Both the position numbers and the translations under genes were made by a program. From Octopus vulgaris (Eukaryota), in NCBI GenBank assembly GCA_951406725.2, contig OX597838.1:42904001-42968000 (forward strand): DNA of 64,000 nucleotides, given 5' to 3'. Positions 16,884 to 56,393 of this stretch are shown in pieces (the stretch's first letter is position 1; each line of letters opens with the position of its first letter). Below the pieces are notes generated by a model. That model did no database searches, had not been told where the DNA came from, and worked only from the letters and a program-made list of their open reading frames with translations.

Positions 16884-19800
16884 CACATACATATATGTGT
16901 GTATACAGACATTGTGCTTCCTGAATTTGAGTTTCTCCAAGAGGGTGAAACTTCTTGAGTATCACATGTTGCCAATTATCCCAGCCCTTTCTCATCTGTG
17001 AGGTTCAAGGTCCTCAGATTAGCCTTCACGATATATGCATACAATTCAATGGGAAATGGATAGTAGATGATGGTGTGTGTGTGTATATATATATACACAC
17101 ACGTGCACATATATATATATATATATATACATACATGTATGTGTGTGTATTTGGCTGTATAGTTATTATGATATACATAATTTATTTTGGTTCATCTAGT
17201 TCTCTATTAATGTACCACATGTCCAGTTTGTTCTGTCAGTTGAATTTCCCAGATGTTATGGGAAGTCTCCAGTGTTACATCCAACAATATAATATATTTG
17301 TGGTATTCCTTCTGACATTAAGCCAGTATGAGGTTTATGTATAGTAAATGACATTAGCTGAAGATGCAACCCTGTGGAATTAAACCTAAATCATTAACAA
17401 GTTTACTCAACAATGACAAACACTCTTGTTTGGTCCTAAAGCGGGCACCTTGGCCATGCTTCTGTATCATCGTAGCCGACGAATCCAAGCATTTTGAGTG
17501 ATATCAAGATGATGGGGAGTGGGTGCAACTCTATTGGTTGTGTTATATCTATTAAGTGGAAACTCACTCTGGGGCATGCAAACAACAGGAGAAATCTTTA
17601 GAGGAAGAGCGACCATGAAGCAAGTGTTTTGGCCTGGTGACTCTTGGGACTCTAAGGGTGTTGGGCCCAACCAGGTCATGACTCTTAGGTGTCTTCCTAC
17701 AGTTTCTGGAATGCCTTGTCACATGAACTTTGTTTCACAGATTCTTCCTAAGTGTTGAATGCTCATCCACTTACTAATTAAGTTGATATTCATTACCTGC
17801 AGCATTGGGGATCCACTGACTTGTATGTTGGCGTATGCGTTAATATTCATACTGTCCACTTGAGAAACTCTGTGGAGACACATGGATTGACTAAATTACT
17901 ACAAGCTGAGCAAGCAGAAGCAGCAGCAGACACCACACAAAGCAAACGATATGTAAAGATCTATGGCCTGACCACACAGCTGGGCCAGGCCAAAAGGATT
18001 AACTCAAGTTGATCCACATCAGGTGCACTTACAACACTATCAACCCCTCAAAGGGACACGTTTTCCTCTGCACACAATAATATAGGTGATGGATACTTGT
18101 TGATGAGGAACAAAGCTACATGTGTGTCTGCGTTAATAGGCAACACCTGAGCAATGATATGATCTAAGATAATCTATAATTAGAGGGAAATATGGCTTGC
18201 AACAGCATCTCACTATCTTATATACGGCCATACATGAAAATCAAAAACAGAGTTGCCTTCACTACAGTTTTGGGGGCAGGAATACTGGTCACTCAGAGTG
18301 GTGTAGTCATTTATTCATTTATGTATCATCCATCGTTTCAACATCGACTTTTCCCTGTATGATCAGGTAAGAGTATGTTGGGGGTCAGTTTTCTGTAGCC
18401 AGATGCCCTTCCTGTTGTCAACTCCATTTGTTCCAAAACAGGATGTAATCTCTCAAACACAGTTTATGCAGTGGCTTACAAGCAAATGATAGCATCAGTT
18501 GGGTCATTGGTTACATTCTGTGAAAACATAATCATGATGACGGAAATTCAGGCTCACACACACAAACATCATCATCATCGTTTTAATGTCCCTTGCTTGC
18601 ATGGATTGGACAGAGTTTATTGAGGCAGATTTCCCACAACTGGTTGGCCTCTGTAACATCATTTAATGTCCATGTTCCATGATGGCGGCAGTCTGACAGG
18701 ATCTAACAAGTGAAATGACATGCTTTGGCCCTGGCTTCTATGTCCAGATGTCCTTACTAATGCTGACCATTTTTCAGAGTTTACGGGATGCTTTTTCCGT
18801 GGTATCAACACTAGTCAGCAAGTAATTTGCAAAACAAGACCCCACCCCTCAACTGAGTGGTGTATTGAGTATTGTGTTCTCTCTTGGCGAAAGCACTTCC
18901 TGATAGCCTGGATCACGTCCCAACAACTGGCCCTTCTTTTGAGGACTAAAAGGATCCTTCTTACCCCTGTAGCTATTGTTACTCTGCAAAGGTCACTCGA
19001 GGCCCTTACTGGAGTATTGCTCTGATACCTAGAGTGGTGCAGCTGTTGCTCACATGGACATTGACACTGTATCCAGAAAAGAGCCACTTGACTGGTTGGC
19101 AAAAAATCACTGACAGACATCTTATCTGGTTCACCGCTGTGCTCTCTCCTCTCCCTACCTTGTCTACCTCTACTGTAATGGCCACTATATCCTCAGACAT
19201 GGCTGAGTTCATGTCCACATGTCCACTCAAGCATTCCCATTCTATTTGTTTCTCTCCTCCTCAAGCCCTGCACTAATTACTTCACCCAATTCTTTTCTAC
19301 CAAGAATGTCAGCCGCCTCCCTCCCCCTGATTCCTTTCCTTGCATCAATCTCTTAGAGAGCCTGTAAATGCCATGGGTACTGCTCCTTTCCCCAGACCCA
19401 GTGGGAATTGTTCAAGGAGCACTTATCTCTGTTGGTAACAGTGAGTTTCTTTCTCTCTCTCAGTGAAAGACAGATTGTACAATGTTTGTGTACAATGTGA
19501 TGCTACATGGAAGTAAAATGTGAGCCTTGATTGTGGAGGATTTACAAATGTTGCAAAGAAATGAAGTCATGTGCCTCACTAGATGAGTGACATTAGCAAA
19601 CATGAATGACAAACCACGAATGAGATGAAAGGAAATTGAATGTAAAAGGTGTCAGATGTAGTATGCAGTAGAGAAGATTACTGATGTGTTAAGAAATTGG
19701 AAGGAACTTGTGGAAGATGTCGTCCGAGGAAGATATTAAACAAAGTGGTAAAGACTGATCCCAAGAGGGTGAACCTGACAATAAAAATAGCAAAGGACCA

Positions 19801-28529: not shown

Positions 28530-29204
28530 CAACAACATCAAGCTCAAACCCAGCAACAAGTCCATCTACAAAAACAGCAGCCACAGACACACTCGCCTCA
28601 ACAAGTGCATGCTGTACCACAACAAATGCATGTCTCCCAACCGCAATCAAATTCAGTGCAACGGCAGCAGTCACAGTCACCTATGCAGCAGCCCCCACAC
28701 ACGGTGCAACGGCAGTCGCCCTCCCCTCAGAGGCAGACACACACCACTGTGCAACAACAATCACAGTCACCACAGAGACAGCTCCAGTCGCACCCGGTGC
28801 AACTGCCATCCCAGTCGCCACAGCAACTGCCATGCCAGTCTCCCCAGCAGCCACAGTCCCCACATCAACACATACACATTGTACAGCAATCACAACCCCC
28901 CTCTCAGCAACAATTGCAACCAATGCAACAAGTATCACAGCATTCACATTCCCATCCTCAGCCAGCCACATCGCCCCAACAGGCACCAACAGCAGTTGTA
29001 GCGACCACCCAGCCTGCTGCTGCTGCTGCTCCCCTTCAATCAGCTGACTTTATTAAGAAAAATGACAATGTGAAATGTCCCAGTATATTGAACACCCCCC
29101 ACAGTAGAGTTAGCAGTCCGACTGTGAATAACTCAGTCTCCTCTCGGAGTACATCCCCTCCTATTCGAGTACCACAGTACACCATCAGCAAAACTCTTTT
29201 ACAG
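28530..29204 (+). CDS. PHF21A: PHF21A exon: Q/S/P/H-rich low-complexity region (225 codons, phase 0-0)
   Basis: tctttctag|CAA...CAG|gtaact; open frame ending SPPIRVPQYTISKTLLQ (human PQPIKVPQF). Confidence 0.9.
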
Positions 29205-42105: not shown

Positions 42106-42674
42106 GTTGGTTTTCATTTCCATGCCTTAGTAAGTTTTCTCAAGTATTTTAAACCACAATTTATCACCTCTGCATATGTTTATTTATTTCAAATGCCCCT
42201 CCCCCCATTAGTTATTATATGTAATATAAAACTGGGAAAACAAAAAAAAACTGATAAATTACATGCATATTAATAATAATAATAATAAATCTTTCAACGT
42301 AATTGAACTAATGATTTTAAAAATAACCTTTCTGTTAATATTTTTTATGGTAAAAAAAAAAGAAAATTTTTTAAAAATGAATGAAAGAAAATTTTGAAAT
42401 TTGCAAATCTTTTGAATTTAAAGTAAAAGCAAATTATTATTACTTTTAGATCATTTCTGAAATTTCTGAACTTTTGGCTGTAAAAATATAAACAATGGCT
42501 ATTTTTACAAAGTTCACGCTTTTATTGAAGTTAATAAGACAAATAAATTGAACCACTTTTATGATTTTGCATCAAGTTTGTTAGGAATGATTTGTTCTTG
42601 ATTTTTCTCTCAATCCAATTAAACTTTGAATGTGAATTGCTTCAATCTAAAACAACCCAACAACTTTTTTCTAG

Positions 42675-42791
42675 GCAAAATGGAAGAAAAATACAATAAT
42701 GAAATCTGTAGGAAACGTGCAATGGAGAGACTAATGATAGACGGGACCCTTAGAGACCCTTGGCACAAAGGAATGATGGGAGGTGGACGAG
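42675..42791 (+). CDS. PHF21A: Candidate alternative cassette exon of PHF21A (117 nt, phase 1-1)
   Basis: cttttttctag|GC...CGA G|gttagt; stop-free in frame: GKMEEKYNNEICRKRAMERLMIDGTLRDPWHKGMMGGGR; composition differs sharply from the AT-rich flanks; no counterpart in human as recalled. Confidence 0.6.
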
Positions 42792-44617: not shown

Positions 44618-44678
44618 AGAAAACGAATGAACTATTTGGTCGGATCAAACATTACAACTGGAACAAAACGACCTCGAG
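44618..44678 (+). CDS. PHF21A: PHF21A exon, first half of AT-hook (phase 0-1)
   Basis: cttgtag|AGA...CGA G|gtacgg; RKRMNYLVGSNITTGTKRPR(G) versus human RKKSAVTYLN...GTRKR(G). Confidence 0.92.
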
Positions 44679-45185
44679 GTACGGTGATTATTGTTGGTGT
44701 TGTGTTTGTGAAGGTGCATGGTGTAGTTGTGAGGGTGTTGCTCATCAGGATCATAAAATCATGGTTTCAATCCCTGGATCGGGCAATCTCTGTTGCGTTC
44801 TTAAGCAAAATACTTTAGCTGTGGATGTGTTCCAGCAATGGGTGGGATGTTGGTCCAGCAATGAACTGAGGGGGTAGTCTTGTAATCTCAGCCCCTTATG
44901 CACCGTGAAAACTGGGTATGAGTGTTGGGGCTCACATTTTGAGTTCAAATCCACTAGAGTCAAGGGTCTATTTTTGCCTTTTCTCACTCAAGGGTACCAG
45001 TAATTATACTGAGACATTTCTACCAATCTGTGATATCAAAAATAATTAACTTTGTACTTAAAATGTTTTGTGGGGGGATAATTCAAAGTTCTGCAAGTAA
45101 AGACTAAAAAAGAGTGGAAATTTATTTTCTGGTGGAATAAATCCCTGACTTGGGTTTTAGTTTTTCTTTTTCCTTCTTTAAATAG

Positions 45186-45218
45186 CAAAATATTTAGTTC
45201 AAACTGAAGAAGTCAAAT
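45186..45218 (+). CDS. PHF21A: Candidate 33-nt microexon interrupting the AT-hook (phase 1-1)
   Basis: ccctgac branch-like site, tttttctttttccttcttt tract, aaatag|CAAAATATTTAGTTCAAACTGAAGAAGTCAAAT|gtaaga; in frame (A)KYLVQTEEVK(C). Prediction from splice signals only. Confidence 0.35.
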
Positions 45219-45694
45219 GTAAGATTGGAGGATTGAAAGTGTTGTGGTGGTTCAAGGGAAGAATTAGGAGAGAACGTTTGATGTGGAAGATGGAACTGGT
45301 TGGAAAAAAAGAAATGAAGTGAAATATATGAACTCGGCAGTAATTTATTTTGTGTTTATTGACTCCAAATTATATATTTTCAGTCAATTGCTTACTTGGT
45401 TTTAAACTTCTTGCATTCTACATGAGTATGTACAGTATCTGTGCTTATACGTTGATTGTGTACTCTCTGTATACCAGCGTTTCTCAACTAGGGGTCCCGC
45501 GAGAAAGAGTGAGATAAGCTAATGCTAATTTCATGATCGTAATATTGCTATAGATGCACAACATTTTATTGGTTATTGTAATATAGACATCATCCTATCT
45601 AACCCATCATTTTATCAAAAACAACAATTATTATGATTATATGTATGTATATATATATATATATATGTGCGTGTGTATGTGTATATATATGTAT

Positions 45695-45884
45695 ATATTC
45701 TGTTGTGTCTGGGGAGAGTGATTCTCTTTTAGTGCCTTATAATTTAACACACTCACCAGTAAAATTTCCACTTATTTCTTTTTTTTTAAAAAAAAAGAAA
45801 GAAGGAAATGGAAATTTTATTGGTGAGTGTGTTATATAATAAGGCACAAAAACAAAATTACTCTCCCCAGACACAACAGAATAT
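45695..45884. mobile_element. Palindromic (foldback) MITE, about 190 bp
   Basis: ATATTCTGTTGTGTCTGGGGAGAGT...ACTCTCCCCAGACACAACAGAATAT perfect 25-bp ends, with complementarity continuing to the T-run/A-run centre. Confidence 0.85.
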
Positions 45885-46043
45885 GCTTCAACACACGAAC
45901 TCACATAAAGAATCTTGCAAATCTAATCCAAAAATGAAATGTGTGTGTGTGTATATATATATATAGTAATATAATAAATAAATAAAATATATGCATATAT
46001 ACATACATATATGTACGTACTTACATCTACATGTATATATACA

Positions 46044-46087
<44 letters not shown>

Positions 46088-46267
46088 TACAGGACACCAC
46101 AAATAAACGTAAAACACAACGAGACGAGAACATAAAATCAAATGAGGAAACGGACTTTTTTTAAACAATGAAAAAACAGTGTACAGGACAAACAATACAA
46201 GGAAATATGCATATATTTTATTTATTTATTATATTACTATATGACCGAACGCACGCGTTATTTCTCT

Positions 46268-46287
46268 ATTTCTCTTCTCCAAGTTTT

Positions 46288-46319
<32 letters not shown>

Positions 46320-46346
46320 CATACATATATATACATATATATATAC

Positions 46347-46387
<41 letters not shown>

Positions 46388-46459
46388 CATATATATATAT
46401 GTATATATATATTATATATACATATATGTATATATTATATATATATACATATATATATG

Positions 46460-46491
<32 letters not shown>

Positions 46492-46565
46492 CACATATAT
46501 ATATATACATATATATATAAAAAAAAAAAAAAACAACATACATATATATATATATATATATATAC

Positions 46566-46608
<43 letters not shown>

Positions 46609-46650
46609 CATACATATATATATACATATATCTATATGTATTATATGATA
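46268..46650. repeat. (TA)n/(TACA)n microsatellite
   Basis: Directly visible. Confidence 0.95.
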
Positions 46651-48005
46651 TTTACCATGTGAACTACCATGAAAAAATATGAAAGACATGGTGTATAATT
46701 TTTTGGTGCCGGGGTTCCTTGAGACATGTAATCTATTTTAAGGGTTACACGCAGGTAAAAAGATTGAGAAACACTGCCCTATACCAAATATTGTTTTATG
46801 TGGACTGTCCAACCCCTACAAGCATGGAAAAGCATTAAAACAACAATGGTGATGTCCCCTCATATTGGCCGTGGCTTTAGCTTTATATAATTTGCATGTT
46901 TTATATGAACTCAAATTGTATTGTTTTATGTGTTAACCTTTTAGCATTTAAACTGGCCACATCCAGTAAAAATATTCTACCTGTTTTATATTCAGACTGG
47001 CCATATCTGGCCTCTCACACTTACCCTAAAATGTCATTGTAAAAATAAACCATCACATCATTGAAATCTCAAAGCTACAAGATAATACCTGATTAATTCA
47101 AAACAATGTGAATAAATAAGGATTATTTTTTAGAGAATTATATGAATGCTAATGGGTTAACACAGGTGTGAGTAGTATCCTGCAAGTGTTATTAGGGAGA
47201 CTAGCATCCGGTCCAGTGAATAGGGATTTATCCCAGGTTTGCTTAACACCATTAGAAAGTGGTGTTGAACAGGTATGGCCACACAGATTCAGTCATGGTT
47301 TATGACTAAAGTGGTGGGACAACTCAGAATCACTCAACAGATACAGGATGATGGAATGACACATTAGAAGGAACTAAAAAGCATACCAGAAATACGGTGT
47401 ACCTGTGCTCGCTCAGCTGGAGACATTTTAATTACGGGTTTGTAAGTTGGAACCCTAAAATGCTGCAGGTGTCTTCAGATAAGTTATGTAATGAATCTTT
47501 GTTGGTAGAAGGAAAATCTGACAAAATTGATTTGCTAACACATGCAAACATGGAAAAGCAAACGTTAAAATAATGACAATGCTTGTTGTTGTTGTTGTTG
47601 TGTAGGCTCTTGTAAAGGACCTGCATGGCTACTCACATCTTGTAGAAGAAGGGGAAAGGAAAATGGGCAGGAGAAGTTGCAAGAGATAGCAATGAGGTGC
47701 CTAGGTGGTCCCCCCACATGGCACAAGGTGAGTTGATGAATCAGTTTACAAGGGAAGGAGAGAAGCAGGCCTAAGTCAGGATGGTAAGGGATCAGTCACT
47801 ATAACATTAAGGGAGAACACAACTGTGCAATAAGCAATGACCTGTACTCAGGCCAAATAGTTGTCTTTAAGAGTTTTGTTGCCATGGTAATGTTATGCAG
47901 GTTTAAACTCGAGTTTCCATAGGTCAATACACCTGAGAGACGTTTTATAATTTTGTTTTGTTGTGGTTAAAGACAGTAAAGGTTCGTTGTCTTAAATATT
48001 TACAG

Positions 48006-48115
48006 GTCGCCCACCAAAACATGGCACATCTCCAACCAACAGTCGTCCAGGTACTCCAGATAGTTCTGACAGTAATGCCAGTATCAAGAATGGTATTGTA
48101 AATGGCTCGTCTGAT
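48006..48115 (+). CDS. PHF21A: PHF21A exon, second half of AT-hook (phase 1-0)
   Basis: tttacag|GT CGC CCA CCA AAA...GAT|gtaagt; GRPPKHGTSPTNSRPGTPDSSDSNASIKNGIVNGSSD (human GRPPK...TSPQSSHPDSP). Confidence 0.93.
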
Positions 48116-50707
48116 GTAAGTATTGCAACAGTTTCTCAATCACAGTTTTCACTTATTTGAAATCATATCTCTACGCAGTGTTATGGATGAAGTACGTCAC
48201 TCTATTTGATTTAGAATTATTTTCCATTTGAGTGATATCACAATGGACTTGGGACAGTTGTTTTTTGAGATAGCTTTTGTCATCTCAGTTTTAACAAAAC
48301 CAAAACATGGAGTTTGCAGTTGATTGCTTCATCATCATCATCATTTAATGTCCATGTTCCATGCTAGCATGGGTAGGAGAGTTTCACAAGAGGCAACCAG
48401 GCCGAAGCCTGCACCAGACTTCTGTGGCTGTTTTGGCAGGATTTTTACAGCTGGATACCCTTCCTAACACCAACCGTTCAGTAGGGTGGAGTTAGTGCTT
48501 TTTGTGTGGAACAAGCACAGGTGAAGTGAGTAGGGCTTTTTATGTGGCACAAGCACAGGTGAGGTCAGTTTTGGCAAGGTTTTCACAGCTGGATGCCCTT
48601 CTGAACACCAAACCACTTTACAGTGTGGACTGGGTGCTTTTAAGTTGCACCTGCACTGAGAGGGTCACCAAGTACTTGCAAGACGAAAACTTTTAAGAGG
48701 GGCGGAGGTGATGATGAAAAGGTTATAGTGAGACCGATACAGGTGTCTTGCTGGAGAGAGAAAGGGATGAAGACAGAAAGAGGTGTGCCACCACAAAGAA
48801 AATATTTGGTTGCTCAACCTGAAGGAAGTGCAGGAGAAGGAGAGAGTGGAAGACCACAGGATGGAGATGGTGGCAACATGCCAGGCATGCTCACAAGGAA
48901 CGGGGGTCAGAGTATAACTGAGATGGTTGCTAAAAGTGATTTGCTTGTGTCTGTATTTATTATGGGTTATGCTACTTCACTTTATTAAGAGGTATCATAC
49001 TCTGATTTATGCCTTAACTCTTTAGCATTTACACCGGCTATATCTGGTTCAAAATATCCTACTCAGATCCAACCTCCCAAACCTACCTTACAATATGTCC
49101 CAGATCAGGGGTCTGCCTCCCTCGTATGAGAGGCATTGATTCTTGTAAAGTCATGACAAAGTTTAATAATAGTTTGATAGTAAAATAGAATGTTACACTT
49201 AGTAAAGGCAAGTTGATTTGATGCTGAACAAAATTCTGGTCACTGAGACACTCAGTTCACAAGTGACTGAGTCTACTTGGCCATAACCTTTTGACATTTA
49301 AACTGACCATTTCCAGCCCAAGTATTCTCTTTGATCAGGTCCAACCTCTCACACCCATCGTACAATGTCTCCTAAAAATAAACAATCACATCTTCAAAAG
49401 CTCAGAGCTAAAAGATAATGCAGGATTAATTCAAAACAATGGGAATGGAAAAGCATTGCATGAAAGAGAGTAGTCTGAATACTAAAGGATTAAAACTTGT
49501 GAAAGAGAGAGAGGGAGATTTAGCTGCCACATGGAGCAGGTCATTCAGGCACATGGAAGCTCCTTTGCTTGTTTGTGAACATGGAAGTCATGTGATATAA
49601 TGTTGTTGTGAATTATTTGGTTTTTAAAACCTGATTTCTTTTGTATCCCACACCGCTTCCACCTTTTTTTGTTGTTATTTGTGAGGTTACTCTTATCAAA
49701 GTTATGAACTCTATGTTTCATCATTTGCCTAAACTGGCAAATCAAGTCAGTGAACCAGTAACTTAATAATATGCAACCAATCTTGATACAAACTGAAAAA
49801 AAAAAAAGACAGACAGAAACATCAAGAAAATTTGCTTTTCTACCACTGAAAATATTTACTGGAAAGACAATTATTGGTTCTAACACAAATTTAGAAAGTA
49901 TACAATAGAAATGTAAATTATTAAGTTGCTAGTTTTCTCATTAAGGCAGAAACTCATAAAGATTATATATAATACAGACATTTGTACTTATTTTGATAAA
50001 AACCAAATGAAAGTGGTAGTAAAAATCACCACACAGCACATGAAATAATCAACTCCATATTTTAGAATATTTAATGTGACCAATTTTGGTGGTTGAAAAG
50101 TAAAATTATAAACATCACATTTGACCTAACTGTGCTGCAAAACCTCCCTATCTTTTGTTTAGGGTGTGTGTGTGTGCTTATGTGTGCAACTTCAGAATCT
50201 GTTTGCTGCACAACTAAAAAACTTGATGCAATGTTTTTTGCATTGTTTAATATTCTGAATTGCTGAACTAATTTTGCCTTTTGTTGCTCTGACTCAATAA
50301 AACAACTATAGGAGAGTTAATTAAATTAAGTATGGCCTGTTCTAAAAATTGGTATTTTAATCAAAGCTATTTAATTAGCATAAAGTTGGCAGAAACGGTG
50401 CAGCACTGAACTATATTCCTTACAGTATTTGGTTCCATCCAGTTACCTCCCTCTGCATTCTGTGTTCACATTCTGCCATGGTCGGCATGGCTTTGTATCC
50501 CTTTAGGGTACTAAAATAAGTACCAGTTGTTTGCTGGGATGAAAGTAACACTCTACACATAGTTACAGGAAATTAATACTGTATATAAAAAAAACCCAAA
50601 AAACTTTCAAATTAAATTGATATTTCAGAATAAATCCAACACATTTTAATGCTTGAAACTATGACATTGTTCTCTAATTGAAATCTCATTTTATGTTTTA
50701 ACAACAG

Positions 50708-50854
50708 GATATCCATGATGGTCTTTGCTTTGTATGCCAAAAAGCTGGCCGATTATTGATCTGTGATGGCTGTGGTATGGCATATCACCCTACTTGTTTA
50801 GAACCTCCTGTTGCTACTTTTCCTAATGGTCCTTGGAGGTGTTACAAATGTCAG
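50708..50854 (+). CDS. PHF21A: PHF21A exon encoding the PHD finger (C4-H-C3)
   Basis: caacag|GAT...CAG|gtataa; DIHDGLCFVCQKAGRLLICDGCGMAYHPTCLEPPVATFPNGPWRCYKCQ, all eight zinc ligands present, colinear with human DIHEDFCSVC...WICPRCQ. Confidence 0.96.
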
Positions 50855-53423: not shown

Positions 53424-53840
53424 GGATCTTTTTGGTTTGAACGGCAGTTTTTTAAAATAATTTCCACGTAACTAAACACTTTTAAACTTCGTATACTGGT
53501 AGAATGTGTTTATAAAACATCTTTTTCTTTTGGCTTTATTGAGAAAATTCAATAGTTTGTAAGATATTTGTTGTTTTTTTTCTTCAATTTCTGCAATTTC
53601 AACCGATCAATGACGTCTATTGAGGTGAAAACATTCTGTGCCATATGAATATGTCCCTCGTTTAAGAAACAGATTGGGTTTATTTACATTTCTGAAGAAA
53701 AAAAGATACCCTTGCCCCCACCCCTAACCCTAACCCTAAAACATATTGAATTGCAATAGATCGATACTAGGGTCATAATTATGGGTGACAATTCCATATG
53801 ACACCGCTAGAAAAAACTGCTGTTCAAACCGAAAAGATCC
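53424..53840. mobile_element. Non-autonomous DNA transposon (MITE), Merlin-like, copy 2
   Basis: TIRs GGATCTTTTTGGTTTGAAC / GTTCAAACCGAAAAGATCC; perfect 8-bp TSD TACATTTC (53416-53423, 53841-53848); internal CCCTAACCCTAACCCTAA. Confidence 0.9.
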
Positions 53841-56294: not shown

Positions 56295-56393
56295 CAATGT
56301 ATTCAACAGAAACAAGAATTAATGAACACAAACAAAAAAGTACAGCAGTCTGCAGACAATATAAATAACTTCCTGCAAATATTCCAGTCTTGA
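56295..56393 (+). CDS. PHF21A: PHF21A last coding exon with stop
   Basis: cctttctag|CAA TGT...TCT TGA; QCIQQKQELMNTNKKVQQSADNINNFLQIFQS* versus human [31 protein letters not shown]. Confidence 0.9.
   Translation, partial: QCIQQKQELMNTNKKVQQSADNINNFLQIFQS

Follow-up and report, generated by a model that had tools for sequence, protein, structure and literature searches.

The 33-nt segment at 45186-45218, inside the intron that splits the AT-hook of the Octopus vulgaris PHF21A/BHC80 gene, is most probably a skipped pseudo-exon, an unused look-alike (probability of about 0.78). A preliminary description of this DNA had proposed the segment as a microexon that breaks the AT-hook in parallel with the vertebrate neuronal PHF21A-n switch. 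This interpretation is unproven and on balance unlikely, and a neural or cell-type-limited microexon of any kind retains a modest minority chance. All positions are those of the window, the whole stretch of 64,000 nt that was analysed.

Results

The AT-hook of octopus PHF21A is split by an ancient phase-1 intron

Protein searches with the PHD exon (50708-50854) returned 7 close proteins, 5 of them named PHF21A-like; the named matches come from Octopus bimaculoides, O. vulgaris, O. sinensis and Argonauta. Residues 54-599 of the named O. vulgaris PHF21A-like protein (P0003) matched eleven exons of the + strand with zero mismatches, running from 27488 to the stop at 56393. The encoded protein follows the order of PHF21A/BHC80, with an N-terminal coiled region, a TANP motif, an AT-hook, a PHD finger and a C-terminal coiled coil. 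Its PHD finger matched 2PUY (2.4e-15), and PHF21A orthologues were found in molluscs, annelids, echinoderms and chordates. As judged from these alignments, the gene is the octopus PHF21A/BHC80 orthologue; the exon-by-exon match to P0003 bears out the identity proposed in the preliminary description. The AT-hook KRPRGRPPK, with its RGRP core before the PHD finger, is present in every one of the 12 cephalopod-type proteins, which comprise 4 RefSeq isoforms from O. bimaculoides and 2 from O. sinensis, 2 O. vulgaris models, 1 from Argonauta and 3 transcript-derived relatives; the Pfam AT_hook score of this hook is 13.4 bits, under the cut-off of 17.4. The relevant part of the gene is organised as follows.

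44618..44678, + strand: coding exon of 61 nt whose last base opens the AT-hook Gly codon (…KRPR-G), an exact P0003 match; counterpart of human exon 13, further based on a 43390>44618 joint in RNA-like contigs and a 61-nt counterpart in locus L024
44679..48005, + strand: phase-1 intron of 3327 nt that splits the Gly of KRPRG/RPPK, defined by the sequence, the P0003 exons and contigs
48006..48115, + strand: exon of 110 nt encoding the second AT-hook half (G/RPPK…) and the linker, supported by the P0003 match and contigs; counterpart of human canonical exon 14
50708..50854, + strand: PHD-finger exon with Gly at the human D489 position, identified by protein search and alignment

The split of the AT-hook by intron 44679-48005, as originally described, was borne out, and the human exon 13/14 junction is identical: human exon 13 ends one base into the codon for the AT-hook residue Gly429, which is Ala in the neuronal PHF21A form (PMC12234916). 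Human exon 14 comes in a canonical or a neuronal version (PMC12234916), and the two are mutually exclusive (PMC11605454). In the neuronal form DNA binding is abolished and H3 binding is 13-fold weaker (PMC11864812). Published work therefore supports the earlier account of the vertebrate neuronal switch (PMC11864812, PMC11605454). Metagenome contigs yielded 3 loci of other invertebrates, none of them cephalopod; in locus L024, from a metagenome record of another invertebrate, a 411-nt intron separates a 61-nt exon that ends in RRR-G from an exon that begins with G/RPPK. Since the octopus, human and L024 introns coincide, their position is common to three lineages, and we conclude that the AT-hook intron, later used by vertebrates for the switch, is ancient. 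Within the same intron, organism D carries a 21-nt deletion at 44701-44721, near the 5' end, and long TA repeats are found at 45638-46651.

The cephalopod PHD finger carries Gly at the D489 column

Residue D489 of human PHF21A binds unmethylated H3K4 (PMC3229088, PMC4225485), and a D489A mutant showed no H3K4 binding (PMC3229088). This column holds Gly in 12 of 12 cephalopod-type proteins (window 50708-50725), and Asp or Glu in 82 of the 117 proteins scored. Gly was also seen at this column in 12 spider-type proteins. The alignment suggests that histone reading by the cephalopod PHD finger is possibly lost or changed, perhaps twice independently. The PHD finger had been described as intact, which holds for the fold and perhaps not for the histone-reading function, as Gly replaces D489.

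The candidate segment has the appearance of an exon

The motifs from which the microexon was proposed (CCCTGAC, a 19-nt tract, TAG, a 33-nt segment with GAAGAAG and GTAAGA) were all found in the AT-hook intron at the positions first reported.

45143..45149, + strand: branch-point-like CCCTGAC with its A at 45148, the sole YTRAY in 45080-45186, read from sequence only
45159..45160, + strand: competing AG, 11 nt after the branch-like A, seen in the sequence
45161..45185, + strand: 19-nt pyrimidine run (45161-45179) followed by the acceptor AAATAG, with TAG ending at 45185, seen in the sequence
45186..45218, + strand: candidate in-frame segment of 33 nt containing GAAGAAG, with a 21-nt form starting at 45198, seen in the sequence and, in contigs, only unspliced
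45219..45224, + strand: donor-like GTAAGA with 7/9 consensus matches, equal to several true donors of the gene, seen in the sequence

In-phase inclusion of the 33-nt segment gives AKYLVQTEEVKC, and translation agreed with the earlier statement that this inclusion keeps the frame and is stop-free. Additional AGs at 45196-97, 45208-09 and 45211-12, overlooked in the preliminary description, give in-frame forms of 21, 9 and 6 nt, and all four AGs beyond the pyrimidine run preserve the frame. Use of the AG at 45159-60 gives a frameshifted exon of 58 nt with a stop after 15 residues. The nearest TGC to the candidate acceptor is at 45092 and the AG-free zone before this acceptor is about 23 nt; the two caveats already raised, the AG at 45159-45160 and no nearby UGC, were confirmed in the sequence. 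A second, weaker in-frame look-alike of 18-21 nt lies in the same intron at 45802/45805-45822, with a GTGAGT donor. What the letters confirm at 45186-45218 is an exon-like pattern, not an exon.

The signals of the candidate are rarer than the genomic background

As background, both strands of 20 further 10-kb stretches from elsewhere in the octopus genome (400,000 nt) were scanned for segments of up to 51 nt, bounded by YAG and GTRAG, that were in frame and free of stops; the strictest tier also required GTAAG and CTRAY. There were 0 such segments at a pyrimidine run of at least 15 (GTAAG, CTRAY), 2 at a run of at least 12, 9 at a run of at least 9 and 42 at a run of at least 6. With a donor score of at least 7/9, the positive tiles of 3327 nt numbered 0/120, 1/120, 1/120 and 16/120 at the same four run lengths. 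A candidate of this strength is therefore rarer than chance, at about 1-2% per intron, with thresholds chosen after the candidate had been seen. Only 1 of the 11 introns of the gene examined holds a candidate at a run of at least 9, and it is intron 44679-48005, the one used in vertebrates. Of the 12 true acceptors of the gene, 9 have a pyrimidine run below 9 (in this count three exon starts were misplaced by 1-3 nt); look-alikes as strong as most of these acceptors are common, at 13-35% per intron. No candidate was found in the homologous 411-nt intron of L024. In our judgement, the sequence evidence weighs about five- to tenfold towards a real exon, on a low prior. Other in-frame exon-like matches in the window lie at 233-235, 53556-53558 and 19396-19440; those at 233-235 and 53556-53558 have flanks in common and seem to be copies of a single repeat.

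Conservation was examined in two further organisms. Over 44794-45363, a contig of organism E (X20) differs at 3 of 570 nt, with no difference listed inside the candidate. A DNA contig of organism D (X19) has the branch motif and tract unchanged and ends at 45184, which is a gap in coverage and no sign of sequence change. A divergence of about 0.5% is too low for power on conservation. Searching the octopus genome with 45100-45300 and 45030-45480 gave a single match each (common words skipped), and two minus-strand frames contained no Pfam family; a transposon origin of this region is neither shown nor excluded.

Contigs read across the junction skip the candidate

The transcript data were assembled contigs under coded run names without tissue labels, from 24 runs, 21 of which were guessed to be RNA and 3 of which were of unknown type; we examined 6 of the 21 RNA-like runs and 2 of the 3 others. 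GT..AG joints between upstream exons and exon-to-exon loose ends identified X1, X2, X3, X12 and X13 as spliced RNA. Four of the six RNA-like runs, drawn from 4 studies and 3 organism labels, contained the direct 44678>48006 join in an unbranched contig (X1, depth 10.2; X2, 6.6; X12, 113.2; X13, 10.8). In all four, the contigs past 44680 continued with letters equal to 48008 onward. X17 had no coverage of exon 44618-44678, and X17 and X3 were uninformative on the 44678 junction. Joints to 45186, 45198 or 45161 were found in none of the six RNA-like runs (for X3, among the matches listed). The proposal that the segment is spliced in was thus not supported by these tissue-unlabelled contigs (0/6 RNA-like runs include it and 4/6 skip it directly), and a check of the predicted 44678 to 45186 junction returned only 44678>48006 joins. 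The refuting outcome named in the preliminary description was reached only in part, as the evidence consists of contigs of unlabelled tissue and of relatives too close for a conservation test with power.

The candidate itself was present only in unspliced form, in X1 (45124-45280, depth 3.5) and X17 (45187-45337, depth 2), and other unspliced patches of the same intron were found in X2 and X3. The start of the X17 contig at 45187 was considered and rejected as a sign of splicing: among 10 contig ends, one lies within 1 nt of a boundary with a probability of about 7%, and in a partly spliced read the shared letters would begin at 45184, not 45187. The X1 contig extends 62 nt on either side of the candidate, a symmetry that was taken as chance.

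Both forms of a 117-nt cassette at 42675-42791 were kept in X1 (6.8 versus 9.4) and X12 (55 versus 50.6), indicating that these runs are able to keep two isoforms. The contigs were made by a graph-simplifying assembler (PMC12424806). Short minor bubbles are expected to vanish in assembly, and contigs can hide a minor isoform. Because graph simplification drops minor bubbles, the contigs exclude only dominant inclusion, and only in the sampled runs.

The insert is absent from predicted and transcript-derived proteins

None of the 12 cephalopod-type proteins contained the insert. Words of the insert occurred in 0 of the 226 proteins fetched, no spacer replacing GRP before RPPK/R was found among 134 PHF21-like proteins with the TANP motif, and a search for shorter protein fragments gave 1 match among 30 candidates, without the insert. 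The RefSeq sets of O. bimaculoides and O. sinensis list two other alternative events, a 39-residue cassette and a 24-nt alternative donor upstream, so events of small size are within their reach. The protein searches were able to find isoforms of the neuronal type, since they recovered fish proteins that carry the known junction (RKR-ANE/AND; P0101, P0185 and P0198). We found no report in the literature on PHF21A splicing in octopus or on PHF21A microexon evolution in invertebrates.

Other splicing events in PHF21A

The 117-nt (39-residue) cassette at 42675-42791 is a real alternative event just upstream of the AT-hook: both forms were found in X1 and X12 and the cassette was included in X3. 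It is annotated in RefSeq for two Octopus species and absent from the two O. vulgaris models. The +24-nt alternative donor is annotated at window 42106-42129. At the tandem acceptor 28530-28532, the exon of O. sinensis P0011 starts 3 nt later than that of P0003, giving one Gln fewer.

Double skipping of 44618-44678 and 48006-48115 (171 nt) keeps the frame. The transcript-derived protein P0024, 99% identical to Lamellibrachia PHF21A (P0023), lacks exactly the AT-hook exon region, and P0095, P0105 and P0127, two of which are genome models, also lack this region. Invertebrates may produce a hook-less isoform by double skipping; no such AT-hook skip was found in the octopus contigs examined. Four vertebrate paralogue-like proteins, P0102, P0104, P0106 and P0111, which we take to be PHF21B, have no AT-hook and carry at the same junction a short ANED/DSED-xCWK segment that resembles the neuronal PHF21A exon. 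The neuronal-type exon may predate the gene duplication.

A helper of neural microexons is probably encoded in the octopus genome

In flies and mammals, eMIC-dependent exons are marked by a UGC close to the 3' splice site, by UC-rich tracts and by an extended AG-free zone (10.1101/2021.02.24.432780), and the non-vertebrate eMIC domain derives from Srrm234 (PMC8797185). An SRRM_C match above the Pfam cut-off was found in the octopus genome on the same contig (L026; G000:C25:37317492-37317626) and probably represents the eMIC-bearing exon of octopus Srrm234. Given this match, the helper machinery for neural microexons is probably present in octopus. At the candidate, the microexon traits found were the 19-nt pyrimidine run, CTGAC and a stop-free, frame-keeping length of 33 nt; of the eMIC marks, there is no UGC near the acceptor, and the AG at 45159-60 breaks the AG-free zone. 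Neural exons arise repeatedly at equivalent positions within the same gene families (10.64898/2026.09.05.749416). The main text of that study does not name PHF21A; its supplements cover O. bimaculoides and may bear on the question.

Discussion

Intronic pseudo-exons, or cryptic exons, have good-looking splice signals and are not used in mature transcripts. We propose that the candidate belongs with them. The spliceosome would pass over the 33-nt stretch and join donor 44678 to acceptor 48006, keeping the whole RGRP AT-hook. The signals may have arisen by drift in an AT-rich stretch of intron for which no second copy was found. With a purine gap before the AG, a competing AG and no UGC, the 33-nt exon would be too weakly defined in the absence of a helper, and its inclusion would amount to splicing noise in no more than a small share of transcripts.

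It is quite unlikely that the segment, in its 33- or 21-nt form, is a minor or cell-type-limited microexon, included in some neurons or stages through eMIC Srrm234 to give a split AT-hook with weak DNA binding. Such an exon would fit signals that are rarer than background and lie in the intron regulated in vertebrates, four AGs that are all in frame and an SRRM_C match in the genome; neural exons recur in the same genes, and the contigs would conceal a minor form. Set against this are the lack of a UGC, the short AG-free zone, the lack of any such joint in the 6 runs and the absence of the insert from all 6 RefSeq isoforms of two closely related species, for which the 24-nt donor event is annotated.

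The strong form of the original idea, in which the insert-bearing form is dominant in octopus neurons as a switch-like neural exon, is very unlikely. The junction is the same as in human E13/E14, and the four informative runs, which have no tissue labels, are possibly all non-neural. However, four studies contained the skip form only, one of them at a depth of 113, and a dominant 33-nt brain isoform, which would very probably be expected in RefSeq or in Logan-derived proteins, was in none of them. Hardly plausible is a poison exon, in which the AG at 45159-60 and the donor at 45219 would define a 58-nt insert with a stop before the PHD finger and message decay would lower PHF21A: this AG is the first after the branch-like site, the 58-nt form stops after 15 residues and unstable transcripts would escape protein models, but the AG lies just 11 nt after the branch A with no preceding pyrimidine tract, and no such joint was found in 6 runs.

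It is unlikely, though worth stating for its consequences, that a neural microexon arose independently in octopus, within the ancient intron that vertebrates use, and splits the AT-hook by insertion in some neurons. On inclusion, the RGRP core would be split by 11 residues and DNA binding would likely fall, as suggested by a GRP-to-ANE experiment in PHF21A that affected DNA binding (PMC11864812). As the cephalopod PHD finger lacks the Asp that binds H3K4me0, such a PHF21A would have only a weak grip on chromatin, and the LSD1-CoREST complex would be loosened in the large brain of an invertebrate. In that case, two nervous systems that grew large independently would have disabled the same DNA-binding hook of the same chromatin reader, both at this intron but with different exon arrangements, which would make a clear example of convergence in neuronal chromatin tuning. 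The solid results are more modest: the AT-hook intron is ancient, and the cephalopod PHD finger has lost a key histone-reading residue.

As a probable skipped pseudo-exon, the octopus segment differs from pseudo-exons in general in two respects: its signals are in the top 1-2% of intron-sized tiles, and it is located at a junction known to be regulated. It resembles the microexons controlled by eMIC/Srrm234 (SRRM3/4) in being short and frame-keeping, in having a tract set back from the AG and a branch-like motif, and in the helper-domain (SRRM_C) match in its genome. Unlike them, it has no UGC, no alternating UC tract, an AG-free zone of only about 23 nt and no observed inclusion; relative to the eMIC microexon size of 3-27 nt, its 33-nt form is above the range and its 21-nt form within it. 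A real exon here would resemble the Type I convergent neural exons of fly spg and vertebrate DOCK3/4 (10.64898/2026.09.05.749416), in that a distinct exon would have arisen where the vertebrate protein has its neural exon. The spg and DOCK3/4 cases described there rest on inclusion measured in tissues, whereas the octopus candidate is known from a sequence pattern.

The closest comparison is with the vertebrate PHF21A-n switch, which involves the same family and the same phase-1 junction. In-phase inclusion in octopus would likewise turn the AT-hook Gly into Ala and break GRP. The vertebrate exon E14-n is proven and neuron-specific, and it replaces exon 14, removing the second hook half and the linker. 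The octopus segment, in contrast, would enter as an extra cassette, with RPPK and the linker retained; it was not observed in any transcript, and it has no sequence likeness to E14-n past a few letters. Each of the four possible forms (33, 21, 9 and 6 nt) is a multiple of three, so none could be spliced to the phase-0 PHD exon with the frame kept; a replacement exon would need 3n+2 nt, and at the thresholds applied neither 44679-48005 nor 48116-50707 contained a stop-free candidate of that length. Of the parallel first drawn, the junction and the gene family stand, but it would be partial, as the octopus segment would be an insertion and the vertebrate exon is a mutually exclusive replacement. 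Collectively, octopus and vertebrates share the same phase-1 site in the AT-hook Gly, which in octopus holds a candidate never observed spliced in contigs and in vertebrates serves a proven neuronal switch.
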